This document shows positions 32,391-59,201 of a stretch of 64,000 nt of DNA, piece after piece. Made by a program: the position numbers and the translations under genes. The notes below the pieces were generated by a model. It was not told where the DNA came from, made no database searches, and saw only the letters and a program-made list of their open reading frames with translations. Each line of letters opens with the position of its first letter. Positions within the stretch are counted from its first letter, which is position 1. The stretch is from Psammoneis japonica (taxonomy: Eukaryota), in contig QPGO01000089.1 of assembly GCA_008632985.1 (NCBI GenBank), positions 1 to 64,000 of the forward strand, written 5' to 3'.

Positions 32391-32822
32391 TGCCCCACGC
32401 ATGTGCCAGGCGCTGAAAAAGAAGATGTGTTGCGACTTTGTCGTTGTGAAAATTGTGAGCTAGTTTAGAGCAGAGAAAATGGGATCGTGCGAATGGGGAA
32501 TCTTGCCAAATCCCCATTCGTTCGCACTTGGATCGCATCAAATCGATCGTGCGTTCGCATTGTGGATCGTGTGAATCAAGCCATCACGCGCCATGCACGA
32601 GTGATGTCATCGTGTGGAATCACGCTGCCATCGTGGGCCAGACGACGGGCCAGTGTGCTTCACACGGATGCTCTCCCAGCATCCTTCTGGAATTGCCCAA
32701 GACCCAGAGCCACGCCCTCCTGTGGTCGTGCTTCCCAGGTGCGTGTTAACAACACTGCGTTGCCATGCACGAGAGGCTCATGCACGGTCTCGCCGTGTTG
32801 TCCAGCAGCGAGGCATGCTGCA
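32391..32822 (-). repeat. Gypsy 3' LTR
   Basis: Direct repeat of 38488-38919 and 40871-41302. Confidence 0.95.
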
Positions 32823-32861
32823 CACTCCCCCGTGATCAGGGCCGTCAAGTGACAGGATGTC

Positions 32862-35465: not shown

Positions 35466-35746
35466 AGAAAGTCACACTGCCCCTCGCGTCATGTCCTCGA
35501 GGCAGGCCGGCGCGCACCCAGCATCCAAAATGCACGAAATCCGGTCGGTTTCCGAAGATGAGGCTTCTGGATCTTGAAGATAGAAGGAGGTTTCTACCGC
35601 AGCATCTGCATGCCTCATTGGTGCTTCTCCATTGACCAATGGCCACTCTGTCATCTGTTCAGAGAAGACAATGTCAATGCCTTGTGTCTCCAGAATGTCA
35701 CGTCCAACAATCACATCGCACTTGCCCAACTTTCCGTTGTGCACGT

Positions 35747-37063: not shown

Positions 37064-37292
37064 ACGTGGACAGCATGTTTAAGTTCTGCAGTTTCGGATA
37101 ATTCTGGTGACCGAAATTTAACGGCACAGTCGTCAGACGCACTGAACGAGCCTGCCACCGTAGTCCAGTTTGTCTCAGCCGTTGAATGGCTTCGCAGACG
37201 TTCACAGCATCGACTGTCAAGTAGAGCACTGCTGGCGCCACCATCTGGCAGTGCCTCAATGGTTTGAGTCTTGCCCTTGCCATGTTTGGCAT

Positions 37293-38429: not shown

Positions 38430-38487
38430 TTCGTAGTTTCGTTTCTGTAGATTTCACCTCGCACAATGTGCGGGAGTGACATCACTG

Positions 38488-38919
38488 TGCCCTGTGCATG
38501 CACCAGGTGCTGAAAAAGAAGATGTGTTGCGACTTTGTCGTTGTGAAAATTGTGAGCTAGTTTAGAGCAGAGAAAATGGGATCGTGCGAATGGGGAATCT
38601 TGCCAAATCCCTGTTCGTTCGCATTTGGATCGCATTAAATTGATCGTGCGTTCACATTGTGGATCGTGCGAATCAAGCCATCACGCGCCATGCACGAGTG
38701 ATGTCATCGTGTGGAATCACGCCACCATCGTGGGCCAGATGACGGGCCAGTGTGCTTCACACGGATGCTCTCTTAGCATCCTTCTGGAATTGCCTGAGAC
38801 TTAGAGCCACGCCCTCCTGTGGTCGTGCTTCCCAGGTGCGTGTTGACAATGCTGCATTGCCACGTGCAAGAGGCTCATGCATGGTCTCGCCGTGTTGTCC
38901 AGCAGCAAGGCATGCTGCA
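38488..38919 (-). repeat. Gypsy 5' LTR
   Basis: 432 bp; followed on minus strand by PBS-like tg(g/a)tgtcactccc. Confidence 0.95.
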
Positions 38920-38923
38920 CTGC

Positions 38924-39360
38924 GTGTCATGAAAACATTTTCTGATGGCCTGTTTTCCAATCATCCGACGGCTCTCCATCTGCACCTGCCAAGCTCCAAT
39001 GACCCCCCCCCCTTTCCTCAGTGCCTTTTTAAGTTCTTTGCTCTGTGCGGTGAACTCCTTTTTGTTGTTGCTGCCACCAGAAGTTTGGTTTTGAGACCAA
39101 CTCGGAGGTTGGTGATGTTTTGGTCCCTGTTTGTGAAATGTGCGGTGTTTGCTCTGTTTCAGATCCCTTCTCACTTTGGAATGTTCCAGCATGGCTTGCT
39201 TCAGTGGAATGATCAGATCCAGCCAGAAGCAAAGAGCCATTCCATTGCTGTGGTTTCAAGTGCTTTGAAGGTTCCAAATCAATTTGCTGTTGCTGTCTGT
39301 GACACCACTCCCAACAGTTCCCGGCGGGCATCATCATTTGTTGGTGACGCCCATCTTGGC
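38924..39360. mobile_element. Right part of second copy of the 15-bp-TSD insertion (truncated)
   Basis: Continues gtgtcatgaaaacatttt exactly where 32390 stopped. Confidence 0.88.
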
Positions 39361-39362
39361 CT

Positions 39363-41302
39363 TGTCAATGCCTTGTGTCTCCAGAATGTCACGTCCAACA
39401 ATCACATCGCACTTGCCCAACTTTCCGTTGTGTGCGTGGACGGCATGTTTAAGTTCTGCAGTTTCGGACAATTCTGGCAACCGAAATTTAACGGCACAGT
39501 CGTCAGACATGCTGAACGAGCCTGCTGCCGCAGCCCAGTTTGTCTCAGCCGTTGAATGGCTTCACAGACGTTTGCAGTGTCGACTGTCGAGCAGAGCGCT
39601 GCTGGCGCCACTGTCTGGCAGTGCCTTGATGGTTTGAGTCTTGCCCTTGCCATGTTCAGCATTCACAGCTGTGAACAAGATTGGAGCAAGATGAGTCTTT
39701 TTAACTCGTTTGCGGGATTGGCCTGCAACACGTGTGCGATGGTAATTCAGTTGTTCATTTGTGCATTCATCCAGTGCATTGAAACTGCCTGCATCATGTT
39801 GGCAAGTGTCCGAGTCTTCGGAATCACTCAAGTTGAGGTCGCGGAAGTGATTGAGCTCCTCCTCACGTGCCTTGCGCTTTTTCTGAGCGTTGGCAAAGAA
39901 CTCCTCGACCTTCGATCCGATGAGAGCATTGATGTCTTCCTCATTCCGAGGTTTTGCATTGGGCTTGCTGCCTCCATTGTTGGAATGTCCAGTCTTGACA
40001 CGTTTCACGTGGGTGTTCGGTTGGGTCGTGATCAACGACTCAGAATTGTCCGTTCCATGTCCCCGCTTGTGTGGGACCCTAGCATGTTGGTCGCGGTTAC
40101 CTTCGGCAAGCTCGACCTGCTCGGCGCGCTTGCAGAACTGTGCAAATTCGGCGACAGCATGCGCCAACGGGTCAAAATTCTGTAGCGTCATGAACTTCTG
40201 CCATGCGTTTGGCACACCGCACTCAAACATGTCGCACAGTTCGTCATTGGGTGATGGTGCCAGTGCTTCTCCATCCTCTGTCACGGGTGGAAACTGAGAG
40301 ATGTGGCCGTTAATTTCAACAGCCCTCGCGATGCAGTCACGAGCAGAAACCTCTGCGGGCTTGCGCATGAAGCGCCTCAGATGATGCTTCTGCAATGGTG
40401 CCGCCCTGTGTGGGAAGATGCTTTCCTTTAGCTTCGCGACGCATGCTGCGTACGCAGCATTGGTTTGAGATGCCTGCTTGTCAGCGGCATTGTTAAATGA
40501 CGTCAGAGCATCGCCCTGTGGCAGGTCACGCATGAGGGCAAATTTCGCTGGCCCGGTCGTGATGTTTTGTCCTTCGTGCACGCGATCCACGTTGCGCAGA
40601 AAGATTGGGAGTGTCTCGCATGTAGCCGTAGAAAGGTGCGGAATGCCCATCTTGTGCATTGGACCATCCGGATCAGCAGGGTTGTTGTGTGGCTTGAACG
40701 TCTGGTGCTCGCCCTGCTGCAGCTCTTTCTTCTCCGGCCGTGCAAACGGAATCGGCGGCTTGATCCGCTTCTTCATGGTCGTTTTAAGATTTGTCGGTCC
40801 TGCCAACATTTCGTAGTTTCATTTCTGCAGATTTCGTTACCTCGCACAACATGCGGGAGTGACACCACTGTGCCCCATGCATGCACCAGGCGCTGAAAAA
40901 GAAGATGTGTTACGACTTTGTCGTTGTGAAAATTTTGAGCCAGTTTAGAGTAGAGAAAATGGGATCGTGCGAATGGGGAATCTTGCCAAATCCCCATTCG
41001 TTTGCATTTGGATCGCATTAAATCGATTGTGCGTTCGCATTGTGGATCGTGCGAATCAAGCCATCACGCACCATGCACGAGTGATGTCATCGTGTGGAAT
41101 CACGCTGCCATCGTGGGCCAGACGACGGGCCAGTGTGCTTCACACGGATGCTCTCTTAGCATCCTTCTGGAATTGCCTGAGACTTAGAGCCACGCCCTCC
41201 TGTGGTCGTGCTTCCCAGGCACATGTTAACAACACTGCGTTGCCACGTGCAAGAGGCTTGTGCACGGTCTCACCGTGTTGTCCAGCAGCGAGGCATGCTG
41301 CA
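39363..41302 (-). mobile_element. Truncated second gypsy copy (5' LTR 40871-41302, gag, protease)
   Basis: ORF 39562..40809 matches 37293..38429 plus ALPDSGASS; lacks the TIR insertion. Confidence 0.92.
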
Positions 41303-42269
41303 CGGTTGCAACTGCATCACATGCTCAATCCCAAAAAAGAGTTGGCAGGCCTTCAATTTCCACACTTCAGCGGCACAAGAAACAGACAATCAACTTCAAC
41401 CAGGAGTTCACGAAGATCGCAGCATGTCCACTGCAATGCTCAAGAACATCCAAAGTTCCCAAAGAAAGCCGCTGACAATTTGGCCGTGGCTCTGCTTGCT
41501 GTGAAACATGCACAGCAGGAGATTTGTGAAGAGAGTGAGCGGCGCAACACATGCAATCACAATGGGGGCAGCGGCATCAACAAATGTGGATTGGCGACAA
41601 CAGCGCTTGTTTCAATGCAGGCAACACTTGAAATTGTGTGAAAACCCTGCAGAGAAGCCAACAGCCAGCCATGCTTTTCAAGTTTTGATGGGAAGTTGCA
41701 GCCCGTTTGCACTCTGCTGCTTGCAGGCTCTCCATGCTGACCTGCTGCAGCTGGCAGCAGGAAGAAACGAAACATCAGAGGCCATCAAGAGCACCAATCC
41801 TTTGGCCCAAAGCATTCCAAGAGATGTCTGTGGCCCACAGAACTGTTTTGAAACACAGGGAGAGGCAACACACCTTCCTCGAGCACCTTGGAGTTGATGT
41901 CCTTGACCACATTGGCAAGAACCCATCTTGTGCACAAAGTCAAAGGTGTGATGCAACAAGAAGCAGGGTGTGCTGGGCTTGATGCACTTGTCTCCCACCA
42001 CCCAAGCAAACAACCCATGTCATCTGCACACAACTCTGCCTTTGATGCAGCTGGCATTTGCTTTCAAAGTGGCTGTGCAGAAATGTGCAACATGGGTGAG
42101 ACTCATTGCCAAGTTTGAGCCCACTGCAGCAAGAGAGGGAGACCCTTGCAAGTCAGAACTTTGGAGGTCTCAACACCTGTCCACCCCCTGAGCTGTGGGG
42201 CAACAACAAAGTTCAGAGTGCCAGTGATTTGTCTTTGTGCATCATGGATCAGACCCAAGCATTTGACAT

Positions 42270-42807
42270 GGATCAAGTGATTGGCAGAGGCTGCAAACAT
42301 GCAGCAGATGAGCCTGGCAATGCTCCGCTGTTGTTCTCAAAGTGTTCCTTTGGTTGTTCCAAGGGAGCACTTCAATGCCCCAAGCCCTCAAGGGAGCACT
42401 TCAATGCCCCAAGCCCTCAGTTGTTTGGTTGGTTGGTTGCACCAGGGCCTTCTTTTGCTTTGGATTCAGCAGCTTCAGGTCTCACTCTGGAGCGGGTTGA
42501 GTGACTGGCGACAGCAACTGCACCAGACAAGCCCTTGCAGCAACACTCCGCCGCCATTTTCAAAGTGTTCCCTGGGGCCCACCAGAGTCCCTCAATGCCC
42601 TCAGCCTGCTTTTGTTGTTTTTTTGGCTGCATCAGTGTGTCTTTTCACTCTGGAGTCAGAAGCTTGAGCTCTCACTCTGTCATGGATCAAGTGGTTGGTG
42701 GCTGTGACTGCACCAGGTCCAGACGAGCCTTGCAATGCTCCGCTGCTGTTCTCAAAGTGTTCCCTGGGGTCCGCAAAAGACCTCCAATGCCCTCAGTTTG
42801 CAGTTGT
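42270..42807. repeat. Degenerate ~190-bp tandem repeat
   Basis: Recurring gccttgcaatgctccgc...ctcaaagtgttcc...caatgccctcag. Confidence 0.75.
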
Positions 42808-43434
42808 TGACAGAACACAGAAGGGCAAAGAGGATGATGAGGTGAAAGAGTCCCCAAGCACTGGGGCTGTGATGACATGAGTGCTGGCAGAGCAGAGGCA
42901 AGAGGCACATCTCAGAGAGATCTGCTCGACTGTCCAAATGGTCTGGCCATCATCCATGTGCAGCCTGTCCATCCTAAAACAGACATGCTGACACCCTCCC
43001 ATGATCTGCAATGTCCAAAGATGGAAGACAATGCAGGTCAAACAAAAAATGGGGATGATGCAAACAGAGAGACCACAGGACACAACAAGTGTCCAAGCCC
43101 GGTGTGCAACAAACAAGGGGGCAATGTGCAGCAGGAAAGGCTGCCATGGAAAAAAATGTCAACGGCTGTGTCCCATTGTGCATCAAGCATGGTGGGCATG
43201 GAGCACCCATCCCAGAGCCTTGGCAAGGCCATCACTGGGGTTGACAATGCCAGGGACATGTCAAGCAACAATCTTGCCCACCTCCTCCTTCCACTCTTGG
43301 ATTGCAGAGAACTGGACATGACACATTGCGAGTGCTTGGCAGGAATGGAGCAGTTGATGATCTTGATTGCTGCTGGTTTGTTGCCAACATGCATCAAGGG
43401 GGCAGGCTTCATCTGGGAGAAACCCAACTCATGA

Positions 43435-43824
43435 GACGGGTTCCAGTCCTAGGTGGGACTCCGTGTGACATTGGGCCCGTAGAATTCTACGTGCGAGCTC
43501 CGTAGTACGAGAATTTAATTGATGGATATGTTTATCTTCAACATCAAATAAACGGCCAAGTTTGTGGTACAATTATGCCTCTTGCCACTCGACTTTTTTG
43601 CAAATGCGCCTGCCCTACGCGATTCTTAAGACATTATAGAATCGCGCTGTAACAAAAAATGTCAAAAGTTGTTGGACGGATCGCTCAATTAGTGTACCGT
43701 AAAATGACAAAAAATATCGAAAAAATCACGTAGAAATCTACGTGCGCGACATACGACGTGATTCAAAAAACTATCGATGTCACAGTTCAGCAGTGCGAGG
43801 TCCCACCTAGACCTGGAACGCGTC
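43435..43824. mobile_element. MITE family 1, young copy with normal TpA content (390 bp)
   Basis: TIRs gacgggttccagtcctaggtgggac / gtcccacctagacctggaacgcgtc; perfect TSD ATGA; about 25 TpA. Confidence 0.95.
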
Positions 43825-44299
43825 ATGAAGAACATGGCAGAGACAAAGGACATGTTTGGCAGCAGTGCCAGCAGCACAGAACGTAGAGTCTGCATCAAAG
43901 AAACAAGCACGCAACTGTGGAAAATTGTTGAAAACCACGCGGCAGTCCATCAATGACAGGTTGCCTTGAGCAGGGCAGGAATCTGCTGGTCCAGCAGCTT
44001 TGTGGTCAAATGCTGGATGACTCTTGTGTGTGATCTGTTTGAGAGCCTTGCATCCATGATTGCCACAGCAGGAGGCAACACTCCGATGACGCTTGTGCTG
44101 TTCTTGGGAAACCCATCCGCCTTGGACAAAATCTTGTGAAGAGAACTCTGGGCTTCTTTGCAGTGGACATCTCGCACTGAGGCAAGACATTGTCCTTGCC
44201 ATTTCTGATTGTGAAACCCTTCTCACCACCTTGATCCTTGGCGAAACACCACAAAGGATGAACTGAGCAGCCAGAGTTGAAAGAGTGGTTTTGGAAGTT

Positions 44300-44695
44300 G
44301 ACGCGTTCCAGACGCAGGTGGGAATCCGTGTGACATTGGGCCCGCAGACTTCTACGTGCGAGCTCCGTAGTAAAATTATACGGCAATTAAAATGTCAATG
44401 ATCGCCAACTGAAAATGAGGCAATTTTGCGAACGCACAAACTCGCACATGATTGAAGTGCATCATTTTTTACTTAGCCAGTTACATTCTTCAGACATTGA
44501 AGAATGTAACTGGCGCATTTTTGTTTCTATAAATTTGTCACATAAAACGTCTGGGGCTTCGCAAAACAGCGAGTCTGGACAACATTTTTTAAATATCACA
44601 CGTAGAAATCTACGTACGAAACATACGACGGATGATAAAAATTATTGTTGTCACACGTCAGTGCTGCGAGCTCCCACCTAGGGCTGGAACGCGTC
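44300..44695. mobile_element. MITE family 1, other subfamily, young copy (396 bp)
   Basis: TIRs gacgcgttccag...ctggaacgcgtc; perfect TSD AGTT; TpA-rich. Confidence 0.95.
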
Positions 44696-46009
44696 AGTTT
44701 TGACACCATGCCCGCATCCCAGCAAGAGAATCATCATGACATGCAGGAGGTTCCCTGGACAACATCTTCTGATCAGGAGTCAAGCTCATTGCAAAAAGCA
44801 CCCCATCATTGAGGATGATGTGGTCTGAGGCATTGACACAATGACAGAAGCCATGGCCACAATGGACGAGTGATCTCTTCAGGGCAGCTGTGCCATGTTC
44901 TTTGTGGTCACAGCATTCTCGTGCATCAGCGAGCAGTGTGTTGGAGTTGAAGAGGCAGTTTGGTGTCATGGATGATGCAGTGCTCCCTGATGTTTTGAGA
45001 GCAGCAGTGAAAGGCAGAGCATGGCTTGATGCAAACTCACTGAGAGCTGCCGCTGAGTCATTCACACCAGCTGTTGCAGTGCCTGCACCAGTCAAGGATG
45101 AGGGTTTGGGCAGCTCCTTCTGCTGGCAGGGCTTGGGAGAAAACTCTTTCCAAATGTCACATCTGGATCAACACGGATGTGTTGTGCAGGTGTGACAATG
45201 AATGAAGTCTGATCATGACTCTGAAGGTTCATTGTGTTGATGGATGACAGAGCTGTGGATGTCAAACAAATTGCATGAGGCCTGTCGGGGTCTGCGACAT
45301 GGAGTGGAGCTTGGTCCACAATCATTTTAATGGATTGCATGTCTGCAGGGTCCACTGTGCAAGGTGGAAATGCTTGGTCGACAAGGCAATCTCAGGGCAA
45401 GTCCACAATGTTTGTCTTGGGTCCAGCATGCTCTGGATTGTCAAAGAACGGGTCCAGATCAAATGTTGAATCTGCACAGATCATGTTCAGGCATGCACAG
45501 AGATTTGGCGTCATTGCACGTGCTTGGGGTTCACAATGGATCTCTGCAACAGATGCAGGAGTGGCCTTTGCAAGGTTGGGAGACACCATGGTTTTACTTG
45601 GTGAAAACATTTTTGGTCACGCACACGCAGAAATCTGGTGTGTTTCTACGGTCATGAAAAATGCTGGGAAAGCACAAAAAAAATGTTTCGGGAACAAAGA
45701 CGAGGCTTCCTTGATCGGCTCACAAAGCAAGAAATGAAAAGAAACAGAGAGCATGGCACAGAGTTCTGTGGCACAGCGTGAGGCCATGACTTGACAGAAT
45801 GCCAAAGGTCAATGATGACAGAGGCATGAAAGACTCCCTGAGCACTGGGGCTGTGACAACACGAGCACCAGCAGATGAAGGGTGAGAGGCCGAACTGAGA
45901 GAGATCTGCTCATTCACCCAAATGGCCTGGTCTCATTGTCTGCACACAGTCTGTCCATTGCAGGACAGACAGGCTGACAGGATGCAGGACATCAGCTGTG
46001 GACAGCAGA

Positions 46010-46300
46010 TCATGGACGGTGGATGGAGGGTGGGGTGTGGCAGATGGTGGGTGGATCATGCTGGATGGCAGATGGTGGACAAATGGTGGAGGATGGTTGA
46101 TGATTGCTGGTGGATGGCAGCCAGGGGCTGGTGGATGAAGGGTTCTTCTGAGTGCCAGGTGGTGTGTGGTGGATGCTGGGTGCTGGACATGATCTTGTGG
46201 AGCACGCTTGGTGGCAGATGATGCTGATTGCTGGATGGCTGATGGCGGGTGGCAGATGGGAGAGTGGCTGGTGCAGGAACAGGGACATGCTGGGTGAGGG
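46010..46300. repeat. GGATGG/GGTGG-rich low-complexity tract
   Basis: Degenerate short repeats with strong G skew. Confidence 0.6.
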
Positions 46301-46469
46301 ATCTCAGAACCCTTGTCTGCAGTGGAAGTGCTGTGTGTGGCCTGACACCCCTGTCAACACTGCCAGTGGAGAAAGATTGGCCAGCTCTCTTTTGGCTCAC
46401 ATTTTGATGGGAGCAATGTGCAGTGCTTGCAGAGTGGCAAAAAGCAGCTGATCTGGCTTCTTGGCCCAG

Positions 46470-46916
46470 CGCAGCATGCGTGCAGACAAAAGGTTGTTTT
46501 TGTCATGCCCTTTGTGACATTTAAAGGCTGCAACACGTCGCCGTGACACATTGACTCTCATCAGCAGCTGCACGTTGCACTCCTCCCCATGTGTCGCGCG
46601 TCCATGCGGCTCTTTGCTGACGTGCACTGACACTGCACGGTTTTGGCAGAACAGTGTGGGTGCGTGCGAAGGAACATGCACAACTGCACAGAGTTTTGCG
46701 CGTTCGACAGTGATCAACGTTGCTGCAGACAACTCCCACTCAGGGTTTCGAACCCCTGGCCTCCTGCCCAATGGTTGCGATGAACCACTCCGCTGTGAAT
46801 TCATGATGCAGCGTGCATGCAGACAAAAGGTTGTTTTTGTCACACCCTTTGCGACATTTAAAGGCTGCAACACGTCGCCGTGATACATTGACTCTCATTG
46901 GCAGCTGCACATTGCA
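46470..46916 (-). mobile_element. TRIM-like miniature LTR element with internal tRNA-like (A/B box) sequence
   Basis: 110-bp direct repeats 46470-46579 and 46807-46916; PPT ggggaggag on minus; flanks CCAG/CCAA; internal agcggagtggtt and ggttcgaaacc on minus. Confidence 0.7.
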
Positions 46917-47859
46917 CCAATTTCATCCCTCTTTTTTGTCTCTGACATGCCCTGAAGTCTGAGGGAAGGTTTGGCAACAACAAATCTCACACCCATTCTG
47001 AAATGATGTGCTGCTTCATTTGGGAGTGCCGCTTGTTGAAGCCAAGCCACTTTTGATTCAAGGAATGCATCATTTCCTCTTGGCTCCTGCTTGCCTGGCT
47101 TGGCTCAACTTCCTCCCATGCCAAGGCCAGTTCCTCAAACAACATTGTGCCCTTTTGCAACAACGCATTTGTTCTCTTTCAGCAACACACAGCTGCTCTA
47201 GAGAGAGGGCCAGTGCCACAAAAAAAAGAAAAGCCAGTCCCAAATCTCAGGCTCAAGCTCATAAGATCATCCAACTTCACCTTGACAGCATTGTGCTTTC
47301 ATTGCAGTTCTGCAGACAAAGCATGGATCACAATCTGACTGGCGCTGCTTTGTTTCTGGCTGCAGACATGCCACAACATTGGCGACGTTGTGCAATTCTC
47401 AAGGAACAAGATGTGATCTTGCACATGCAATGTCAGACAAGCACGTCTTTTGGTCTCACAAGTCTTGCATGGATCTCCTTGGATGAGAGAGTGGCAGGTG
47501 GCATTGCAGTGATGGGGCCAACCCTTGCTTGCAACAGCATGTGTTTGAAAGCATGCCATCCACCGCACTTTTCAAGAAGGAGCTCATCCAATGGCAAGCC
47601 CATTTACAAAGGAGGAAGTGACTCCACAAACGCCAATGTGTGTGGCATGTCCTCAAAGCTGCACTGCCAGATTTCCAGCTGGACAACCCAGTTTTTGTTC
47701 AAGTCCATGGGTGAAAGCCAGAGAAAAAGACATCCCAAGCAGCAGAAAGCCTCAGCCCATGAAAGAGAGGTTGAGTTGGAAAGGCCAAAAAATTGTCTTT
47801 CAGCAGCAGGAATTCTTTTGATCATTCAACGTGGCATGAAGTCACCTGTTTCTGTGCTG

Positions 47860-48700
47860 ATTTTTGCAGCAGATGGGCCTTGCAATTCTCTGCCTCTGTT
47901 CTCAAAGTGCTCCTTTTGTTCAAAGAGAGACCTTCAATGCCCTCAGTTTGCAGTTGTTGGGTTGTTTGGTTCCTTCAGGATCCTCTTTCACTTTAGATTC
48001 AGCAGCTTCAGGTCTCACTCTAGAGAGTGGGTTGATTGACTGCTGGGTGGAGCTGCGCCAGATGTTCCTTGCAACACTCCACCACCATTCTCAAAGTGTT
48101 CTCTGGGGCTCACCAGAGACCAATGCCCTCAGCCTGCTTTTGTTGTTTTTTTGGTTGCATCAGTGTGTCCTTTCACTCTTGAGTCAGGAGCATCAGCTCT
48201 CACTCTGGCACGGATCAAGTGGTCAGTGGCTGCAACTGCACCAGATGAGCCTTTCAATGCTCCACCACTTTTTTCAAAGTGCTCCTTTTGTTCCAAGGGA
48301 GCACTGCAATGCCCTCAGTTTGCAGTTGTTGGGTTGTTTGGTTGCGTTGTCAGTGTGTCCCTTTGCTCTGGAGCAAGGAGCTTCAGCTTTCACTCTGGCA
48401 TGGGTGACTTGGTTGGCAGCTGCAGCTGCACCAGATGAGCCTTGCAATGCTCCGCCACTGTTCTCAAAGTGTTCTTGGTTCCTCAAGAGACCTTCAATGA
48501 ACGCATCCTGCAGCTGTTGGGTTTTTAGATTGAGTCAGTGTGTCCTTTCACTCTGGAGGCAGGAGCTTCAGCTCTCACCACTCTGGCATGGATCAAGTGA
48601 TTGGAGGCTGCAAATGCAGCAGACAAGCCTTGCAATGTGCTGCTGCTGTTCTCAAAGTGTTCCCTTGGGTTCACAGGAGACCTTCAATGCCCTCAGTCTG
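47860..48700. repeat. Degenerate ~190-bp tandem repeat, same family as 42270-42807
   Basis: tcaaagtg anchors near 47901, 48091, 48274, 48463, 48652. Confidence 0.8.
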
Positions 48701-49618
48701 CATGCTGATGCAAGAAAAAAAACAGGAGGTGGCATCTGTGCCAGCAATTCGACTCTTCCTGGGGCTGAATGTTGACAAGCTGACTGTTGCTGTGGACTTT
48801 GTTCTGGGTGCTGCGTGAGCTGTGGTTGCCACAAGCCACAAACAGGATGTGATCTAAGAAGGAATCTAGAACCTCAAGGGGGGCTGGAGGCAGAAGGAGA
48901 ACAGTTGCTTCTGTCAGAACAGAACAAACATGCATCACATCTCAAATTGTGCTGCCGTTCAACAAATGCTGTTGCCTGCAGCATCCAGTCTTCTTTCTTC
49001 TTTTGCACCCCCCCCCCCCCCCCCCCCCCCGCCAAATGAGAGTCTCAATGGCATGCCCAGCTCTCTCATTGCTCCCACGCTTCATGGCTTGACTCCAGTG
49101 CTTGGAGCCACAGTCACATGGTTGACTTTGTCTGCCATGTTTTCATGCTTGGCATCCATGATGGGTGCTGCCAGAGGTGCAGAACTCATTTTGCTTGCAG
49201 GGACAGTGTGGCTTGGCTTTGCCGTGCCTGGCCACATCAATGAAACATGCCCAAGCCAAATCCAGGGTGACCCAGACAACCACCACAGCCACCCATCATG
49301 ATGAAAAAATTCAATTGCAAGCATTGAAGGAAAGAACAGCTTCATTGACGCTGAGACACTCCTCCTCAACCTGTGAACAAAAATGCAAAAAATCAGATTG
49401 TGGTGGCTTGTGGCACCCATCAACATGAAAATCCCAGCATCATGTCTTGGAAGTTCTGAACATGGAAAGCAGGCTCTGAACAAACACCAGACTGAGTCCT
49501 GACATGATGCTGCAGTTCGTCCATGTTGCGGGGCTGAGAACGCTGCTTCTTTGAGTCAACAGTGATCAACCAGTGGGTGGCAGCAGACATTGTCTGCCCC
49601 CCCCAGAGAAATGTCCAT

Positions 49619-49872
49619 GGTTGAGAAAAGACACAGTGCAAGCTGCGGGCTTTTGTTCTTGTCCCCTAAAACAACCAGGGGGTTGTCAAATTGTGAGTGG
49701 TTGAGAAAAGAAACAGCGCAAGCTGTGGGCTTTTCAGGGTCATCAAATTGCCACACAGCACAAGCTGCAGGCTTTTGTTTTTGTCCCCCAAAACAACGAG
49801 GGTTGTCAAATTGTGAGTGGTTGAGAAAAGAAACAGCACAAGCTGTGGGCTTTTCAGGGTTGTCAAATTGCC
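49619..49872. repeat. ~120-bp tandem repeat with internal subrepeats
   Basis: 49681-49740 nearly identical to 49801-49860. Confidence 0.85.
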
Positions 49873-50599
49873 AGCGGAGTTCACAAACTTGCAAACATGT
49901 TGTTTGCTGAAGTGTGGGTTTGTCATTTGTGACACAGAACTTTGTTGAAACAGAGTTTGTTTTTGGAAAGTTTCTCATCTCCAAGCATGCTGCTGTCCAC
50001 ATGTTCAATGGCACAAACCACCAAATGTCTCCATGAGCCATTTGAAATGGCTTGTGATTTCCATGAGCTGTTTTCCAAAAAGCTGAGCTCACTTTGATGA
50101 ATTGCCTCTTCTTCTCTGCATTGCTGATGTCACACATTGGGCAAAATGTGAGTCCAGCATGGGCCAGAGTGAACCAAGAGCATGTTTTGCCAAGTGCACA
50201 TCTTTCTGTGGAGAGCTTGGAGGAATGGGCCCAGCAGCTTGGCTGCTTGCTTGTCAACCAATTGACAAGAACAACGGAGCAATCTCCAGAGGCAAACTTT
50301 GACTGCCACTGCACAAAAATTCAGCTGCTGTTGGCAAAATGGAGCCCCATCCTTCAAGTGCAAACAGCACCACAACAAGCACAACAACATCATGGAGAGC
50401 AACATTCATGGATCTGCATGCCAGTGTTTCCAGGTGAGTTCAAAGAGGCTGAACAACATTGATGTGATTCATCCACACCTGGGCTGAACTTGGGGCTTCT
50501 CTCATTGCTTGTTGCCATGCCATTTTGCAACAATTTGACACATCCCATGTTCTTTTTTTCTTTGAAATGAGGTCTTGCAGTGTTTTGTGCATCTCACAC

Positions 50600-50700
50600 T
50601 TCTGCCTTGGCCATTTTGTGCCCTTGTTGTTGGCCATTTTACCCCCTTGGTGATTTTGTGCCTTCAGCAATTTTGTGCCCTTGACCCTCACAAAATCATT
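50600..50700 (-). repeat. Degenerate satellite remnant
   Basis: ccttggccattttgtgccc monomers. Confidence 0.7.
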
Positions 50701-52035
50701 GATGAAGGGAGCGCCCACTGACATTGCTGCACCCTCAGTGGGGGGCATGGGACAAACCCTGGCAGCTTTGTCAGAACAGCCTTCAAACAGCAAAGAATGA
50801 CCAGCTGCACCCCATGCAAGCACAAGGGGGCCATGGGATGAACCCTGGCAGCATGCTGAGCATTTTGAATGTCGCCCCCCCATGAGGGGCAGGATTGCAA
50901 ATGCATGAGCAGAAAAAGGCGGTTCTTGAGATGGAGACTTCCCCTCCACACTCTTGACTGCATTCTGACACTGCTTCTTTGACAGACAAGAGTGGTGGAA
51001 ACCCCTTCTTGCCTTTGACCTGCCTGATTGGGATGAGAACAGCAACCCATTGCAGTGGTGCAGATGTGTCACTCGCTTTGCAAAATGAAACAATGACAGC
51101 ACCAAGTGCAAAAAAATTGTCAACAAAATTTGTCGTGACATTCCAGCTGAACAAAATGAAAATTTTAGAGAGCAAACAAACTGGCGCGCGTTGAACAGAA
51201 CATTGGCACAATCAGAGCCGCAGGTGGAAATCTTTGCAGCCATTGAAAAACAGCCTTAACATGGGGAAAAAGAGGTGGCAAATGAAACAAAAAAGACAGC
51301 ATCTGCCAAAAAAAGCAGGTGAATTTGTGCGGGGCACTGCCAGTGAAGAGAACACATGGGAAGGAGGCCCGCTGGGAGAAGTTGGGAGAGTGTGTCTGTT
51401 TCACTCAGAAGAAAAAGACAAATTTGGTCAAGAAAACATCAATTGGATTTGATTGTGCTGCAGGAGTCATGCAAAGTGGTGTGGAAACAATGCAATTTTG
51501 TTGCACCAAATGAGGGTCAGCCCACATTTGAGGAACAGAAACCCAACAGACCAGTGCAAAACCCACATGGAGCCCACCTCTGATGTCACTGAGTGCTTGT
51601 GTGCATCAGGGGCAAGGAGCAGAGATGTGAGATGCCAGATTTGTTTTCTTTTTGGCTGTGCTGCAGCCCGCACAAAGTGCCCCCCTGTCGTCATTGATGG
51701 CGCAGTCTGTGCAAAATGCTGTGGTCCTCGTCATGTTGCTCAATTTCCCACGAGGTTGAAAAAAGCAGGCCACCATGATTGCCAAAAGCTGCGGCCATTT
51801 TGGCTGTGATTTGGCTTGCACTTTGTCAATGTGATCATGACCATGCAATGTCAATGTTGAACAAAGCACAAAATGTTCATTTTTTGTGCAAAAAGGAGGG
51901 GCGTCTGTGTTTTGCTGTTGCTCAAGCAACTTTGCATTTTCTTGCTGCTCTTTCCACATTGCTGCTGCCTGCACTGCTGTTGCTGATGCACCTCTGCTTG
52001 TTGTTTTTTTTTAACATGCAAAGTGCCCGATCCGC

Positions 52036-52430
52036 GACGTGCTCCAGCTCCAGGTGGGACCTCGTGCAGCTGCGCTGTGACATCAACAGTTTTTTGGATC
52101 ACGTCGCATGCGCGCACATTTCTGCGTGTTGTGTTCTGTGAAATTGTTTCATGCTCCCTGTTTTTGCAAAGCCAAAGGGCTTTCTGTTTTCAACAGTTGT
52201 GAGAGTCGAAAGTGTGCTGGGTGTGTTCTTCAATGTCTGTGGAGCACACCTGGACAAACCATTGTTGGTGCACTTCAAGTGTGAAGGAGGAGATGCGTTC
52301 GTAAAATTGCCTCTTTTTCTGTTGGCGATCATTCACATTTTCATTGCAGGTCAAATTTGCTGCAGAGCTTGCGCACAGAATTCCATGGGCCCAATGTCAC
52401 ACGGAGTCCCGCCCAGGACTGGAACCCGTC
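52036..52430. mobile_element. MITE family 1 copy (395 bp), TpA-depleted
   Basis: TIRs gacgtgctccag...ctggaacccgtc; flanks CCGC/CTGC. Confidence 0.9.
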
Positions 52431-52625
52431 CTGCCGACAACGAGCACAAACCAAGACCAGCACAATTTGCAGAGTGCACAGCCATGCGGCAAAGTGCTGC
52501 TCATCAGCATTGGCTCCAACATGCCATGCATTTGTGTCTTTTCCATGATGGAGTTTGGGTTTGTTTCTTTTGTCCATCTGGTGCCATTTAAAAAGGAGTG
52601 CCGTGCGCCAAGGTTTTTTGCCAGC

Positions 52626-53635
52626 GATGTGTTTTCAACCCAGGTGGGTCACTTGGGGACAATGCACGAGGTTTTCTGCACATTTCTGCACGACACGCAC
52701 TTTTTGCACCACAATCGTGCGCAATTTTTGAGCTCCCAGATGATGCCATCTTTTTTTCATGCCTCATCCACAAGGTCAATGCAACGATGTGGTTGAAGTT
52801 TTGATTTTTGCTGTTTGTTGTGTCTTGTGGATGGCCTTTTTCCTCATGATGTTTTTTGTGCCAATTTTTCTCATCCTCAGATTGTGATGTGGCATTCTTC
52901 GACATGCAAGGCTCTGTTGACTTGATGCTTCATGCACGCAACAACGTGTGTCTTTGTGATGCATCAGTGTGATTTTTGTGATGCATTGAACGCACTTCAA
53001 GTCAGTGTGGATGATGCTTTTGGGTCACACGCAAACATCAAACATTGGCGCCGACAAAAGAATGACTCTTCATTCAGTTTTAAGGGTGCACGGTGATGAA
53101 GAAGCCACTGGACAAGTCCAATGGGTGCAATGTTGTAAAGCAGAACAAAAAAAGGGACGTCTGTGTGTTGCATCCATTTTGCTTTGTTCCAAGGCAGAAC
53201 CAGTCAATTGCACATGGAAATGCTGTCTACATTGTTTCATTGTTGCCGCTGCTTCTGCTCATCAAATGACCCAATTGCTCCACATTCATCAAACTTTGTT
53301 GCTGCTGGCATGCAGCTGACTCAAGACTCCCACACAGGTCAACAAATCAGTCGATCTTTGAAACAGCAGATTGTGCAAAAATGCACACATGAAGTCACCA
53401 AAAAGTTAATTTCAAACGAGCTTTCTCTTTTTGTCCACACCCTCCAACGAACAAAGAAGGCGGCCGGTCATTGAAAATGAGCAGATCTGATGAAAGAACA
53501 AGCAAAAAATCAGGGGAAAGTGTGAGCTCGGATGAGAATTTTTTCTCGCACAAAAAGCACGGTGACGGAAAACAGACAGACACAATGTCACACCCTCGTG
53601 TGCGCGCAACCCACCTGGGATGATGAAAACACATC
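52626..53635. mobile_element. Non-autonomous TIR element family 2 (1010 bp), inverted relative to 35747-37063
   Basis: Termini gatgtgttttca...gaaaacacatc; TSD CAGC; internal similarity to the 35747 element. Confidence 0.88.
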
Positions 53636-53675
53636 CAGCACAGCAGCACTTTCAAATGATTGGAGAGAGGAGAAT

Positions 53676-54032
53676 GACGGGTTCCAGTCCCAGGTGAGAC
53701 TTTTTGTGACATTTGCCCCGCAGAATTCTGCGTGCGAGCTCTGCAGCTCATGCTCTGGTCAATGAACACATTTGTCTTTGACACAAAATGAACGGCCAAG
53801 TTTGCAGCACATGTGTCTCTGTTTGCACTCGAAGTTTTGGACAGCGTGCCTGCCCTGCGCCATTCTTGGGACACTCGAGAATGGCGCAGAAGAAAAAATG
53901 TTAAAAGTTGTTGAATGGATCGCCTGACAATGTGCTGTAAAATGACACAAAATTTTGCCAAAATCACGTGTAAATGTGCATGTGCGACATGCGACGCGAT
54001 TCAAAAAACTGTGACAAGACCTGGAGCGCGTC
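53676..54032. mobile_element. MITE family 1 copy with small deletion near right TIR
   Basis: gacgggttccagtcccaggtg...ctggagcgcgtc; flanks GAAT/AAAC. Confidence 0.88.
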
Positions 54033-54529
54033 AAACGCTGCTGCTGCAAGAACGCACACACTTTAGAGGCAAGTGGTGCTGGAAGCAGCATGTTGGAAAT
54101 GAGACCTGAGTCAAGTGCACTTGGAGCGCCAGCTTTCTTCTCAGCTTTCTTCTTGATTGTTCTCGGCCCAGCTGATGGGAGACCCTGCCACGTGTTGTTT
54201 TTTTTCTGTGCCACACAGCACTTTTCTTTTTTGCTTCTCTTTCATCAGAGGCGGCAACACAGTGGCTTTCAATTTTCTACATGCAAATGTTGCCAATCAC
54301 AGTTGATTTTGTTGCACCTTTGATTGTCATTTTTGCATTTAAATTGAAGCAACACACTGAACTCATTAAATCCGTTTTATGCCAACATTTGTCATCCATT
54401 TGTGTTTGATCATTCTCAACAATTTAATTCGATTTTCGCTTTTGTTGGATTTTGTAAATTTCCATTTGATCTTAATGTCACATTTGCATTGAACTGACAT
54501 CTTTGATTTTGGTTTTTAATGTCTCCACA

Positions 54530-57500
54530 TCATGCACACCCCACCGTGTTGACTGGCATGTCCTCTGCTGTTTGGCACGCTCCAGTCTCCCCCACGCACA
54601 TTTCCAGCATCATTTTTCCAGCACCTCCCGGAATTTCTGTGCTGCCCTGCTTCGGGTGCTCATTCCATGTGCACAATTGTCTGTGCAATTCACAACAGTG
54701 CATCCTCTCCCCAAACTGCTTTCCACCTGAGCATGCACTGTTGTCATCCACGCACTTTCTACGCAAATCACAACTGACCTCTTGCCATGGCAGTCAACAA
54801 CTTCACCCCGTCTCACGACGATGTCGACCCTGATCCTTCCTTCCAATTTCCTGATGAATGTGATTTTGATGATGTGGAATGTTTTGCCAATGGTTTTGGA
54901 ATGGAGTTGTTTGGTCCCAAGCTCAAAAGCACAATTTCAACGCGTGCATCCAAAAAGCAGTTTTTGGAATTGACGAAATGGACTCCCTCTCTGCAATTTC
55001 TCGCTCTTCCCTTCCTTTGCCACAAGCCAAAGTTGCGTTGAATTCCGTGTGTCGCGGAAGTCATCCACACCAACAATGTCATCAGGAAAACTCTTGGATG
55101 CCCTGACGTTTGGTCTTGCATCAAGGCTCGTGGTTGGTCCCTGAAGAAATCCCGCTCGCTGAAAGGTCAATGCTGCCTTCGTCATCAAAATTTGGGCAAA
55201 GCTCTCCATTTCTCCAAAATGCCTGGAGAGACAGTTCAACAAGAAGAGCACCGCATGAATCTTCACCGCAACATCAAAGCCATGGCAGAACTTGTCTGTG
55301 CAATTGTTGCTGGTGACGACCCAAATGATCCCGTTTCCGGCAAGCCTTGTTTCCGGTTTCTAAAGGAAGACAATCTCAAAAAACTGATCGACGACCGTGC
55401 ACAAGACCTCCACGGTGCATTTTTTGTCACCGAAATCGCAACGCATCACGTTCAGCACAAACAAAATGACTTCGACTGCTGGTTCATGCAGATTTTTCGT
55501 CATGTCCAATTGCAAAAGGAGTGGCGCCTGTTTGTCAACAGCTTTCTTGTGCCATGCGATTCTAACGACCCGGGCTCTCAGGCGGATGATGTCAAGGAAC
55601 ACCTCACTCCGGACCAAATCGGCAACATGAAGAACAAAGTGACAATGGCTGGTGATTCCCTTGCCCGTCGGGAGGCGTGCAAAGAAAAAATAAATTCCAT
55701 GTTGAACCACGAATTTGGGAAGCGCTGTCCTGAGGAACAACCTGGCACATGACCCAAGTGCAGCAAGTTGCGCACAATCCAATGACAACAAACGAGAGCA
55801 TCAATCCAAAACCAAACGCAAAATTGGGAGGACCCACAAAGACGGCACCTGTTTGTGTGACGGTGCGTGCCCCCCCCCTCCTTGTTGCCGCATGTTTCTT
55901 GTGCATCCGTCTTCTCACACATCCATGTTTTGTCCTGTTGTTCACATTCGCTGCACAAGAGCCTTCCTTGACCATCCCCAACAAGAAGCCAAAGACTGCA
56001 TCACGCTCCACCAAGGCACGTCCTCCTTCATCTGCCGACCTGCCGTCGTCACGGGAGGCAAACCGCACTCTCACCGCCGACCTTCCCACTTTGTCGGAAA
56101 CCATGGATTCCCACAAACCTTCCTCTTCACTGGAAGGTCCTCCCACCCAGCTGCCAGCCTCTCCGCCAGTTCGCACCATGAAAGGCCCGGTTGTGTTGTC
56201 TCCCCCACTGGACCCCAATGACATGTCGTGGTTGGACAAGTCTACACTCCGACAGAGCTTTGACCCATCCAAGTGTCGATCTGTCACCTCAGACAAAGTT
56301 GCTGCTCATGTGTCACGCCTTCACATCATTGACAAGGCAACTGACATGGAGCATGTGCTTCACCATTCTGCGGCCGACTTTTACCTTGCCGACAACCTCA
56401 GGGAAAACTGGCACATCTTTTCAAACAAAACCCCCATCAGCGACCCAACTGCCACATCTCGTGTGAGAGCCGAGTGTCCTCCTGACCTCGATCACTGCTC
56501 AGATGAACTCTCTGTTGCCCGTCATGCAAACTCTCTTTACAAAGGGCACTTTGGTTGCCTTCGTGTGTGCATTCCTGCCCTTTTGCTTTTCATTTTGTTG
56601 AAGGGAGAGTCTGATTTCAAATGTGACGGATCACTGGCAGTTGACAAGGAAGACAGACGAAGGATCAAGATTGGCTGTGCTGGTTGGTCATGTCATCCAA
56701 AGGAGCCTGGCTCTGCAAAATCAGCCAAACCCAAGGCCACACACGGTCTTCATGTTTTTGATCCTGACAAAAACTTCGACGTGAAAGAGTCTTCCAAAAT
56801 CAAGGCCATGGTCGCTGACATTCTTGACTTGACTCAGCTTTGCGAAAACGACGTCGAGCTTCGGAAGCTTCGCAACCCCCCACCGTTCAACTGGTCGCTT
56901 CGGTGCGAAGAGCATTCGAAAATGTTTTGTGATGAAATGGGTTGTCCACATTTCCGTCGTGAGGACATCACCCTGCAGGGATCATGCACATCCCGTGGTC
57001 AATGTTGTGAAGGACACCGCGACATAAAAAAACTGCACCTGGCTTTTGATGTCGGAAGACAGCCGCTGGTTGTTTCTTTGTCATGGGTGCCTTTGGCGAT
57101 GTGTGGTCCTTCAAGGCAGTCACCAACAGCAGAAGCCCCATCGGTCAATGCTGCGATGACAAGTGCAACATGAACCCGATGTTGACTCGGATGCACCACA
57201 ACCAAGCTCAGCTTGACTTTGTGCTTGAAGACATGGATCTCCAACACGATGGTCCCACCCATCCTGACTCTGTCCCAACCACACGCACATTAAAAAAACT
57301 CTCGCTGGATGACAGCCGGCCATGGAACAATGTTGTCATCAGCGGAGGCGGTGTCACGGGAGATGCGTTCCAGGTCCAGGTGTGACCTCGCACTGCTGAA
57401 CTGTGACATTGACAGTTTTTTGAATCTCGTCGTATGTCGCGAACGCAGAATTCTACGTGATTTTTTGACATTTTGTGTCATTTTACGGTGCGCTCATTGA

Positions 57501-59201
57501 GCGATCCATCCAAAAACTTTTGACATTTTTTGTCACAGCGCGATTCTACAATGTCTTAAGAATCACGCAGGGCAGGTGCATTTGCAAAAATGTCGAGTGG
57601 CAAGAGGCACAATTGCACCACAAACTTGGCAGTTTATTTGATGTTGAAGACAAACACATCCATCAATTAAATTCTTGTGCCACGGAGCTCGCACGCAGAA
57701 TTCTGCGGGCCCAATGTCACACGGAGTCCCACCCAGGGCTGGAACGCATCGGGGAATCCCCTGTGTGTGCATGGATCAGCTTGAGTTCCCAACATTCCCT
57801 GTGAGGGACTTTCACCTGTCCACCCCAAGCACAGCTCTGTTCCATTTCAAGAACATTGTGCACAGATCGGGGCCAGATCCGAAGCGAGTGATGCGGTTGG
57901 CCATTCATGCTGGTCATCCGACAGGGCATCACCGACTCCACTGTGTCAGTGACAAGCACCTGCCTGAGCTGTGTTGCCAAGGCGTCAACTCATTTCTACA
58001 ATTCGCCGATCACTTGATGAATGAGTTTGGCGTTTTGTTCGGTGATCCACAGGTGGGCAGGATTGGCCCAACCAATTTGACCTACGACAAGTTCGCCAAG
58101 GTTTTCATTGACGACAGGTGCATTGGCACCGCTGATGACCCAGTCGACGTGATGGTCGACGAAATCCATGCAGTGCTGCTTTGGCTCAATGATGGCATCA
58201 CCACCAATGAGTTCTGCCCCAATTTAATGGAACAATGCTGCAAGGCTGCCTGCGATGTTTGGGCACACAGGGGAGCAGATTTTAGCAAGATTTGTCTCAT
58301 CTTGGTGCTGCATTGTCTCGCTCTATCCAGTGTTGTGGTGAAGGACCACCTGCGTCTGAACAACATGGTGTGTCCTGCATTCAATTCTGGAGCGGCCGCT
58401 CAACTGGCCCACATTGACCCAGACGAACGACCGCTCATGCACCAACGCATGTCATCGGAGACCGGGACTGAGGAGCATGGTTGGAACGGTGCAGAGCACA
58501 AACTCTGTGAGAACTCGGACAATCGCTGCACGTGCATGTTCGATTGCATGTTCCGCGGTCCATGTTCCGGACAAGATCTCTTCACATTTTCTCCATCAGG
58601 CAAGCAATTGCGCAAACCCTGTGGATCAGTGGATTGTCAAATTGTGGAGTGCACTGACTCAGACCCTCACCTTTATGACCAAAAAGATGCAACGGTTCAA
58701 GGTGGAATTGTGGCTGACCTTGGCGATGAATCCTTGTTGCGTGATGGAGTGGCTGCTGACAATGAATTAAACTCATTGTCTGGATCATCCGACCAGGATG
58801 AATCCTTGCCGGAAGAATCCTCCGACGATGAAGACAGTGCGGGATTAATTTCTTGTGCATCGGACAACAACGAATCATTGGCACTTGACGGAGTTGTGGC
58901 AGACAACGAACTTGGCTCCTTGCATGATGAGTCCTCCGACAACGAAGAATGTGCGGGATCATTTTCTGGCGCATCGGACAAGAACGAATCATTGACTCTG
59001 CACGGAGTTGTGGCAGACAACGAACTTGGTGACAGTGTTTCGGAATGCAGCGCCCCTGTTGTTGCTCTCGAGGATGAGGAGAGTTCTGTCGATGCCACCG
59101 ACGACCGTGCGAATCCACCTGACCTTTCACAAAATCCCGCTGTGAATGTGGATGAACACATGGCGGCAACTTTAGCGCAAGTCTCGCACCTTCTCCTTTG
59201 A
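54530..59201 (+). pseudogene. Large fragmented ORF(s) of unknown function, convergent with the Plavaka transposase, interrupted by a MITE
   Basis: Frames 54787..55041, 55192..55752, 55749..57173, 57675..59201; acidic C-terminal repeats (DGVVADNEL x3). Confidence 0.55.
57362..57750. mobile_element. MITE family 1 copy (389 bp), partially converted, inverted relative to 43435
   Basis: TIRs gatgcgttccag...ctggaacgcatc; flanks GGGA/GGGG; 7 TpA left. Confidence 0.93.

Follow-up and report, generated by a model that had tools for sequence, protein, structure and literature searches.

A 64-kb stretch of Psammoneis japonica DNA carries a graded series of mobile elements that points to post-insertion conversion of TpA to TpG or CpA

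Introduction

What has removed nearly every TpA dinucleotide from tens of kilobases of DNA in which two short elements have kept theirs? We addressed this question in a contig deposited as Psammoneis japonica (GenBank assembly GCA_008632985.1, contig QPGO01000089.1, positions 1 to 64,000 of the forward strand; this whole stretch of 64,000 nucleotides is called the window below). TpA occurs at 282 sites in the window, an observed/expected ratio (obs/exp) of 0.07, and is thus almost absent. A first reading made from the sequence alone had proposed that copies of one family of miniature inverted-repeat transposable elements (MITEs) form a time series here, in which TpA turns into TpG or CpA (TG/CA) after insertion. 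We analyzed this family together with a long terminal repeat (LTR) retrotransposon, several duplications and the single-copy DNA of the same window.

Textbook cases of host-driven mutation of invaders are fungal repeat-induced point mutation (RIP) and APOBEC or ADAR editing in animals. RIP, which operates in ascomycete fungi, needs duplicated sequence and a sexual cycle. For a protist, the first report of a TpA-directed A to G system is a 2026 preprint on two viral inserts (Mettrop et al., bioRxiv 10.64898/2026.01.13.699255). In mutation-accumulation lines of Bigelowiella natans, the preprint describes TpA to TpG/CpA hypermutation of integrated nucleocytoplasmic large DNA virus (NCLDV) and virophage sequences, which hold 231 of the 302 nuclear mutations. 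All but one of these (230/231) are A to G or T to C, all of those 230 fall on TpA, they occur in some lines only, and the de novo rate is about 1000-fold above baseline. [quoted passage not shown] Our literature search found TpA to TG/CA hypermutation in this preprint only, the other matches being papers on fungal RIP. A term search of the preprint's main text gave no match for "trinucleotide", "MITE" or "retrotransposon".

Results

TpA depletion and a graded MITE family

The window has a GC content of about 0.50, a single N run at 23531-23699, and dinucleotide obs/exp values of 1.64 for TG, 1.55 for CA and 0.61 for CG. Counted per 500 bp, TpA mostly stands at 0-3, reaches an intermediate 3-10 over 33.5-41.5 kb and forms two sharp peaks at 43.5-45 kb. 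Both peaks correspond to short elements with terminal inverted repeats (TIRs), the MITE copies A and E. Searching the window with copy A by blastn returned seven family copies, some of which are flanked by a recognizable target site duplication (TSD):

43435-43824, forward strand: MITE A, 390 bp, near-unconverted, 25 TpA against 30.3 expected from base content (obs/exp 0.83), TSD ATGA/ATGA
44300-44695, forward strand: MITE E, sister subfamily (same termini, other core), 396 bp, near-unconverted, 22 TpA (obs/exp 0.70), TSD AGTT/AGTT
57362-57750, reverse strand: MITE B, 91% identity to A, partly converted, 7 TpA
25186-25371, forward strand: MITE C, 3' half only, 88% identity to A, 2 TpA
53676-54010, forward strand: MITE D, 75% identity to A, old, 3 TpA
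52036-52430, reverse strand: MITE F, E subfamily, end state, 1 TpA
18110-18505, reverse strand: MITE G, E subfamily, end state, 0 TpA, TSD CTCA/CTCA still intact

These copies form two groups, A, B, C and D on one side and the sister subfamily E, F and G on the other, with only the termini common to both. The TIRs are about 25 bp long (in copy A, 22 of the first 25 positions match), and the 4-bp TSDs have no mismatch in A, E and G, with B and F agreeing at 3 of 4 positions. Open reading frames (ORFs) overlapping A and E gave no Pfam match. Words of the family reach depths of 20,000-110,000 (summed contig word depth in a public run) versus about 32 for unique DNA, which suggests that the genome has thousands of copies. 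A pattern scan of metagenome contigs yielded no further copies. With its length of 390-396 bp, non-coding sequence, TIRs, TSDs and many copies, the A/E family is fairly named a MITE. Around the two near-unconverted copies, the 400-bp flanks contain 0 and 1 TpA for A and none on either side for E, and the 475 bp between A and E contain one.

Copies A and B align with 36 substitutions and one gap column. Seventeen sites read TA in A and TG (14) or CA (3) in B, with no case of the reverse (sign test, 1.5e-5), and one more TpA site of A was changed by a transversion. Transitions make up 17 of the 18 changes at TpA, and each of them removes a TA; the 7 TpA of B are all present in A too. The remaining differences are 8 CpG-type transitions (CG in A seven times, in B once), 9 other transversions and 1 other transition. 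The chance that at least 18 of 36 substitutions fall on the 50 TpA bases of 390 is P = 8e-8.

Most of what the sequence-only reading had counted by eye agrees with our exact recounts: a perfect TSD and 25 TpA in copy A, 7 TpA in the inverted copy B, 17 of the 25 sites turned into TG or CA plus one transversion, and end states with 1 and 0 TpA in the copies starting at 52036 and 18110. The word pairs that it quoted (cctagg/cctggg, ccgtag/ccgcag, gatatgtttat/gatgtgtttgt and ggtaca/ggtgca) are all found in the A-B alignment. Its remark that other differences are fewer is right for each class but wrong in total (19 versus 17). The four copies that it named are real but belong to a family of seven, which also includes C, D and E. 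Its two "TpA-rich islands" exist as well, but at 0.83 and 0.70 copies A and E are TpA-normal rather than TpA-rich.

Direction of the change

The window also contains a retrotransposon, which we used together with its relatives to determine the ancestral state:

32391-38919, reverse strand: complete Ty3/gypsy LTR retrotransposon, TpA obs/exp 0.17, intermediate stage
32391-32823 and 38488-38919, reverse strand: LTRs of this element, 433 bp, with TG..CA ends
32387-32390 and 38920-38923: its TSD, CTGC
32862-35471, reverse strand: pol reading frame (RT, RNase H and integrase, by Pfam)
39435-41303, forward strand: partial second retroelement copy, 91% identity to 37065-38920
13810-16364, forward strand: empty-site paralogue, matching 30202-32390 plus 38920-39295, empty site at about 15996, TpA obs/exp 0.02

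The element belongs to Ty3/gypsy, as it combines the LTR ends and the TSD with the order RT - RNase H - integrase (RVT_1, RT_RNaseH and RT_RNaseH_2, Integrase_H2C2, rve). We aligned its pol with the best 60 of 120 listed homologues (50-58% identity), 1349 proteins having E <= 1e-10. In 31 columns, at least 60% of the 60 homologues have Tyr; the window pol has Cys in 19 of them, His in 8, Tyr in 1 and another residue in 3, so that Cys or His has replaced Tyr in 27 of 31 conserved columns. Control columns were kept at 55 of 62 positions (His 9/11, Cys 8/10, Trp 16/17, Phe 22/24; Fisher p 1e-16). Even the catalytic YxDD motif reads HLDD. Since a working element needed TAY codons at its Tyr columns, TA became TG or CA there, and TpA conversion has destroyed the Tyr codons of this pol. 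Two related pol loci, at 49-51% identity, were too distant and were not used.

The two LTRs provide a second line of evidence. They were identical at insertion, hence their differences arose afterwards: 7 sites with TG in one LTR and CA in the other, 4 with TA versus TG/CA, 11 of CpG type, 3 other transitions and no transversion. A TG-versus-CA double difference implies an ancestral TA or CG that was converted independently in each copy. Judging from CpG retention, only 0.7 of the 7 sites would be expected from ancestral CG. Over all repeat pairs, the TG-versus-CA counts are 38, 24, 24, 16, 12, 8, 7 and 7, with only 0.5-6 expected from CpG decay, and TA-versus-CG sites were found in none of the pairs. 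This class of difference is the dominant one in each pair, the counts of 16, 12, 8 and one of the two 7s coming from older pairs. For these spectrum counts, pairs below 85% identity (20 of the 30 self-hits of at least 200 bp) and hits inside 22,000-27,950 were left out, and the pair 23996-25185 / 54243-55452, described below, was added back separately. The partial second retroelement copy and 37065-38920 differ at 38 TG-versus-CA and 21 TA-versus-TG/CA sites and by 4 transversions. Comparison with a third copy was uninformative in the LTR triple, where the 9 TG-versus-CA sites hold only TG and CA and no third state.

Third, at sites of the reliably aligned MITE termini that still read TA in A and/or E, some copies show TG and others CA; the TIR motif CCTAGG, for instance, carries TG in B and F and CA in D, E and G. 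At the TA sites of A, copies B and D are opposite at 5 positions and the same at 7. Fourth, we took the 40 differences with the best support that separate the window from copies elsewhere in the genome, drawn from the public run: at 13 of them the window has TG/CA and the other copies have TA, with no transition in the reverse direction; a further 11 versus 5 are of CpG type. Together, these comparisons, each independent of the others, show that TA is ancestral and TG/CA derived.

Timing and pace of the conversion

The empty-site paralogue and the TSD CTGC identify the retrotransposon as the product of a single insertion event, and its LTR differences place conversion after that event. The duplicated and single-copy parts of the window were compared as well:

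2491-13809, forward strand: tandem duplication, 5.67 kb, 96.4% identity, 24 TG-versus-CA sites and 13 sites with TA in one copy only
23996-25185, forward strand: repeat element, also present in inverted form at 54243-55452 (88% identity), 24 TG-versus-CA sites and 5 sites with TA in one copy only
44766-51891, no strand assigned: span with eight single-copy pieces, 5434 bp in total, word depth about 20-34, oldest state

By TpA obs/exp, the material can be staged from new MITEs (0.7-0.8) through the LTR element (0.17) and old duplications (0.02-0.04) to single-copy DNA (0.03). The corresponding TpA and CpG values are 0.17 and 0.87 in the LTR element, 0.04 and 0.75 in the tandem duplication, 0.02 and 0.44 in the empty-site paralogue, and 0.028 (10 sites versus 353 expected) and 0.05-0.31 in the single-copy pieces. 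The tandem duplication had an estimated TpA obs/exp of about 0.17 when it was duplicated and is still losing TpA. A dispersed 2.2-kb duplication (13810-15996 versus 30202-32390) has 95.6% identity. No Pfam match was obtained in the units of either duplication (2491-13809; 13810-15996 / 30202-32390).

At the inferred ancestral sites of the MITEs, TA is kept at 20/21 in A, 16/17 in E, 6/21 in B, 2/18 in D, 1/9 in C, 1/17 in F and 0/17 in G. CpG falls more slowly over the same copies, being kept at 23/25 in A, 17/21 in E, 17/24 in B, 13/22 in D, 7/15 in C, 13/20 in F and 9/21 in G. The series therefore contains two clocks, TpA being lost first and CpG next, both of which end as TG/CA. The low CpG obs/exp of the oldest single-copy DNA (0.05-0.31 against 0.87 in the LTR element) points to regional CpG methylation alongside the TpA process.

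We modelled rates from the numbers of sites kept in both copies, converted in one, or in opposite states, using the three youngest independent pairs. According to this model, each copy has lost a fraction of 0.78-0.79 of its TpA. The per-base rate at TpA would be about 100-140 times the background and about 7-8 times that of CpG decay, the background being counted from 3-33 differences per pair. The LTR element had a TpA obs/exp of about 0.7-0.9 on arrival.

Intermediate states are seen in MITE B, in the LTR element and in the share of genomic copies that have TA at a given site, which is 5-76% (from read depths). With seven MITE copies in view, conversion looks like a continuum rather than an all-or-none event. 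The alignments show that it is cumulative, copy by copy, and that it ends in DNA rich in TG/CA and free of TpA, where TTAA survives most often. The proposal that conversion follows insertion and accumulates is in this way upheld by the LTR-pair differences, the empty site and the graded TA retention.

Sequence context of the target

We next counted motifs at the converted and unconverted sites of 10 self-hits of at least 85% identity, taking TA as ancestral and removing duplicates by coordinate. As both strands of each TpA were counted, this gave 184 target adenines. The converted fraction depends on the base that follows the A (+1): 32/49 for C and 8/15 for T, versus 10/43 for G and 12/77 for A (chi-square p 3e-8). 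At sites with T-A-Y (Y, pyrimidine) on one strand and T-A-R (R, purine) on the other, 28 of 30 events took place on the T-A-Y strand (p 9e-7). No preference was detected at +2 (TACG 14/24, TACA 12/17 and TACT 5/5 converted), and that at -2 is weak. Survivors have an excess of A at +1: among the TpA left in old DNA, A stands there in 230 of 470 targets and 65 of 235 sites are TTAA, whereas in copies A and E the +1 base is spread nearly evenly over the four bases (versus survivors, p 1e-8). These counts identify the base that is hit as the A of 5'-T-A-Y-3' or, read from the opposite strand, the T of 5'-R-T-A-3'.

This rule has several consequences. Because the flanking base decides between TG and CA, independent copies often convert alike. 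It also explains the 14:3 excess of TG over CA in copy B, and the 19:8 excess of Cys over His at the Tyr codons of pol, since TAY always offers a good target on the top strand. Strand-coordinated bursts, which the 14:3 ratio of B had suggested, were rejected: runs tests over all pairs were not significant (largest |z| 1.66), and the T-A-Y rule explains the bias.

The MITEs also contain subterminal palindromes, a perfect one, GTAGAATTCTAC (43479-43490), and one with a single mismatch, GTAGAAATCTAC (43730-43741), in direct orientation and each followed by GTGCG. They are candidate transposase-binding sites. In old MITE copies, the palindrome GTAGAATTCTAC reads GCAGAATTCTGC, a change that follows from the T-A-Y rule and keeps the symmetry while altering the sequence.

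Reading frames and other repeats of the window

Since TAA and TAG both contain TpA, none of the six frames of TpA-free DNA appears closed. Stop-to-stop ORFs of at least 110 aa number 219 in the window, and 0.09% of the residues in them are Tyr. We submitted 200 of these 219 to a Pfam scan, leaving out 19 ORFs of the satellite region (22,000-28,200); the sole match was the retrotransposon pol, and no recognizable host gene was found among them. Rfam and tRNA scans of the window gave 0 matches each, and no deaminase gene is present within the 64 kb.

Arrays of a 17-bp satellite (unit CAAAATCACAAAGGGTG) occur in both orientations at 22236-23530, 23700-23979, 25373-27675 and 27748-27866; variants of the unit (GGGTG, GGGCG, GGGCA) resemble the products of CpG decay. 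The N gap at 23531-23699 separates two satellite blocks, and a "99% palindrome" at 23497-23733 consists largely of those Ns. A 190-bp tandem repeat (4.5 units, 72% matches) lies at 47865-48702, with a related block 5.5 kb upstream at 42264-42809; contigs of the public run connect its units in several alternative ways. A very high-copy repeat at 46570-46907 has a word depth of about 79,500 versus about 32, and the window has TG/CA at 9 places of this repeat where other genomic copies have TA, mostly in T-A-C context.

Discussion

Our comparisons show a transition from TpA to TpG/CpA in the window that is heritable, acts at the DNA level after arrival and depends on sequence context. The explanation that we consider rather probable as a whole is a post-insertion T-A-Y transition made by a DNA adenine deaminase, working as a defence on inserted or silent DNA and of the same kind as the B. 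natans system. An enzyme would deaminate adenine in DNA, turning T-A-Y into T-G-Y and, seen on the other strand, R-T-A into R-C-A; the resulting inosine would be read as G. Conversion erases the TA-containing terminal and subterminal palindromes of the MITEs. Deamination would serve genome defence, with inserted or silent DNA as its target. Targeting of this sort is suggested by the near-normal TpA content of fresh MITEs and LTRs, which implies mobile lineages that had escaped long exposure.

Natural TadA acts on RNA loops. TadA, ADAT and TadA-derived base editors convert A to I, which is read as G, and the best context in the window, T-A-C, fits the U-A-C of TadA, since bacterial TadA edits the A of U-A-C-G (PMC10027721). 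The T at -1 and the order C>T>G>A at +1 are both seen in the window, whereas G at +2 is not. The agent is probably an adenine-deaminating enzyme whose neighbour preference is closer to that of TadA than to that of ADAR or amphioxus ADAT2.

Several observations weigh against this explanation. Neither the enzyme, nor inosine, nor a de novo event was seen here, and sequence cannot separate deamination of A from modification of T on the opposite strand. ADAT2, the precedent for DNA editing in the preprint, prefers GAA rather than TAY (amphioxus ADAT2 on DNA, PMC10354150), the ADAT-type editing of fungi favours A or G at +1, and no G is required at +2, unlike in the UACG of TadA. The rate ratios rest on the 3-33 background differences per pair. 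In the 1.87-kb pair, more TpA is kept in both copies than a one-rate model allows (11 versus about 3 expected), so rates must vary between sites, which the T-A-Y rule explains in part. Finally, single-copy DNA is as depleted as repeats, and no recognizable host gene is found among the 200 of 219 ORFs.

A rival to targeting is a genome-wide, untargeted T-A-Y mutational bias, for instance through missing repair of deaminated adenine, with TpA kept only in new or selected sequence. Such a bias in place of targeting is possible, although we judge it unlikely. It fits the obs/exp of 0.028 in single-copy DNA, the value of 0.07 over the entire 64 kb, and the short flanks of other genomic repeat copies, which are nearly TA-free by eye. 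However, the non-coding copies A and E and the LTRs arrived at about 0.7-0.9, where neutral sites should be depleted unless these families entered very recently, and a rate of about 100-fold would be a heavy burden on the codons for Tyr, Ile, Leu and Val. In B. natans, moreover, the signature is limited to particular regions and lines (Mettrop et al.).

As TpA is self-complementary, T to C at R-T-A and A to G at T-A-Y look identical in sequence. The thymine of R-T-A might thus be the modified base, for example through JBP/TET-like oxidation to 5-hydroxymethyl- or 5-formyluracil that mispairs with G and gives T to C. Dinoflagellates and kinetoplastids are known to hydroxylate thymine in TpA contexts, and changes from A:T to G:C are promoted by 5-formyluracil. 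We nevertheless regard this route as rather improbable: there is no evidence for such bases here, the strong +1 C/T reading resembles the U-A-C context of TadA-type deaminases, and the authors of the preprint favour adenine deamination, themselves without direct proof (Mettrop et al.).

That a modified TpA base was misread as C or G in sequencing, base calling or assembly is very improbable, even though the depletion is extreme (0.07). Modified bases can give systematic miscalls, but misreading that depends on the strand (CA on one, TG on the other) would break contigs at every site, whereas eight single-copy contigs of the public run (337-1067 bp, word depth about 20-34) equal the window with 0 differences. 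The assembly also holds copies at graded stages and, on the same contig, TpA-normal elements with exact TIR boundaries inside TpA-free DNA, an argument that the sequence-only reading had already raised and that the matching contigs reinforce.

An ancestral TG/CA state, turned from CpA/TpG into TpA by a RIP-like change in copies A and E, was named by that reading as the outcome that would overturn it; although the A-B pair alone gives no direction, we give this scenario next to no credence, as it failed four independent tests (pol Tyr columns, LTR pair, MITE splits, other genomic copies). The Tyr to Cys/His changes at 27/31 conserved columns and the TG-versus-CA double differences between once identical LTRs rule out this direction, TpA is nearly absent across the window rather than enriched, and single-copy DNA is affected. 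The same four lines carry the direction from TA to TG/CA that the reading had proposed.

Equally negligible, in our view, is the idea that RNA intermediates underwent ADAR-type editing ahead of reverse transcription and that the edits became fixed in new copies of retroelements. ADARs prefer G on the 3' side, and the +1 preference here is C or T. The change reaches MITEs (which are DNA elements) as well as segmental duplications and single-copy DNA, and the two LTRs of one insertion differ, which editing of RNA before integration cannot achieve; what speaks for it is that A-to-G change with a 5' U preference is ADAR-like (Discussion of the preprint, Mettrop et al.).

We return to the probable explanation, post-insertion deamination at T-A-Y, and to the known systems that it can be set beside. 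Fungal RIP resembles it as a heritable transition hypermutation of mobile DNA in a dinucleotide context that inactivates transposable elements (TEs) and leaves a signature. The direction is opposite: RIP makes C to T changes, mostly CpA to TpA, and enriches TpA, whereas TpA is erased here. RIP is also confined to duplicated sequence, unlike the process in the window, where single-copy pieces stand at 0.028. CpG decay by deamination of 5-methylcytosine likewise yields TG/CA from a self-complementary pyrimidine-purine step and runs in parallel in the window. It is, however, about 7-8 times slower here, starts from CG and cannot explain Tyr to Cys/His changes.

The closest likeness is with B. natans (Mettrop et al.). 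[quoted passage not shown] TE-type domains (RT, DDE) are enriched in the TpA-depleted coding sequences of B. natans, and TEs are affected after insertion in the window. The evidence differs in kind, being historical here (copies of different age) and drawn from mutation-accumulation lines there. The targets differ as well: those seen here extend over 64 kb at 0.07 and comprise a MITE family together with an LTR retrotransposon, several duplications and DNA present in single copy, compared with clusters defined from 3 kb upwards and a value of 0.45 for the NCLDV insert in B. natans. Our long-term rate ratio of about 100-140 contrasts with about 1.6e4 per TpA base, as computed from figures in the preprint (211 mutations, 6169 TpA, 3132 generations, baseline 3.46e-10).

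A process of this kind is thus already in print, and the window is a well-documented further example with new mechanistic detail. It offers independent support, from sequence only, for a TpA process that acts on transposons after insertion. New elements are the internal clock given by LTR pairs, empty site and MITE series, with the LTRs and the empty site carrying the case for post-insertion action; the calibration of TpA loss on both the background and CpG decay; an end state that spans 64 kb (obs/exp 0.07, TpA-free with TTAA survivors); and the T-A-Y trinucleotide rule, which reduces the range of candidate enzymes and makes the outcome of every site predictable. On the practical side, gene finders would be misled by such DNA and over-call genes, since two of the three stop codons contain TA.

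A more specific version of the same explanation, which we put forward tentatively and hold to be somewhat doubtful, is that a TadA-like T-A-Y DNA adenine deaminase, unlike ADAR or ADAT2, serves as a heritable anti-transposon defence, drives TE-rich domains of tens of kb to a TpA-free state and immobilizes MITEs through the loss of their palindromes. If this is true, deaminase defence would not be confined to the two viral inserts seen so far, and if the window is not from B. natans, the system would be wider than the one species in print.

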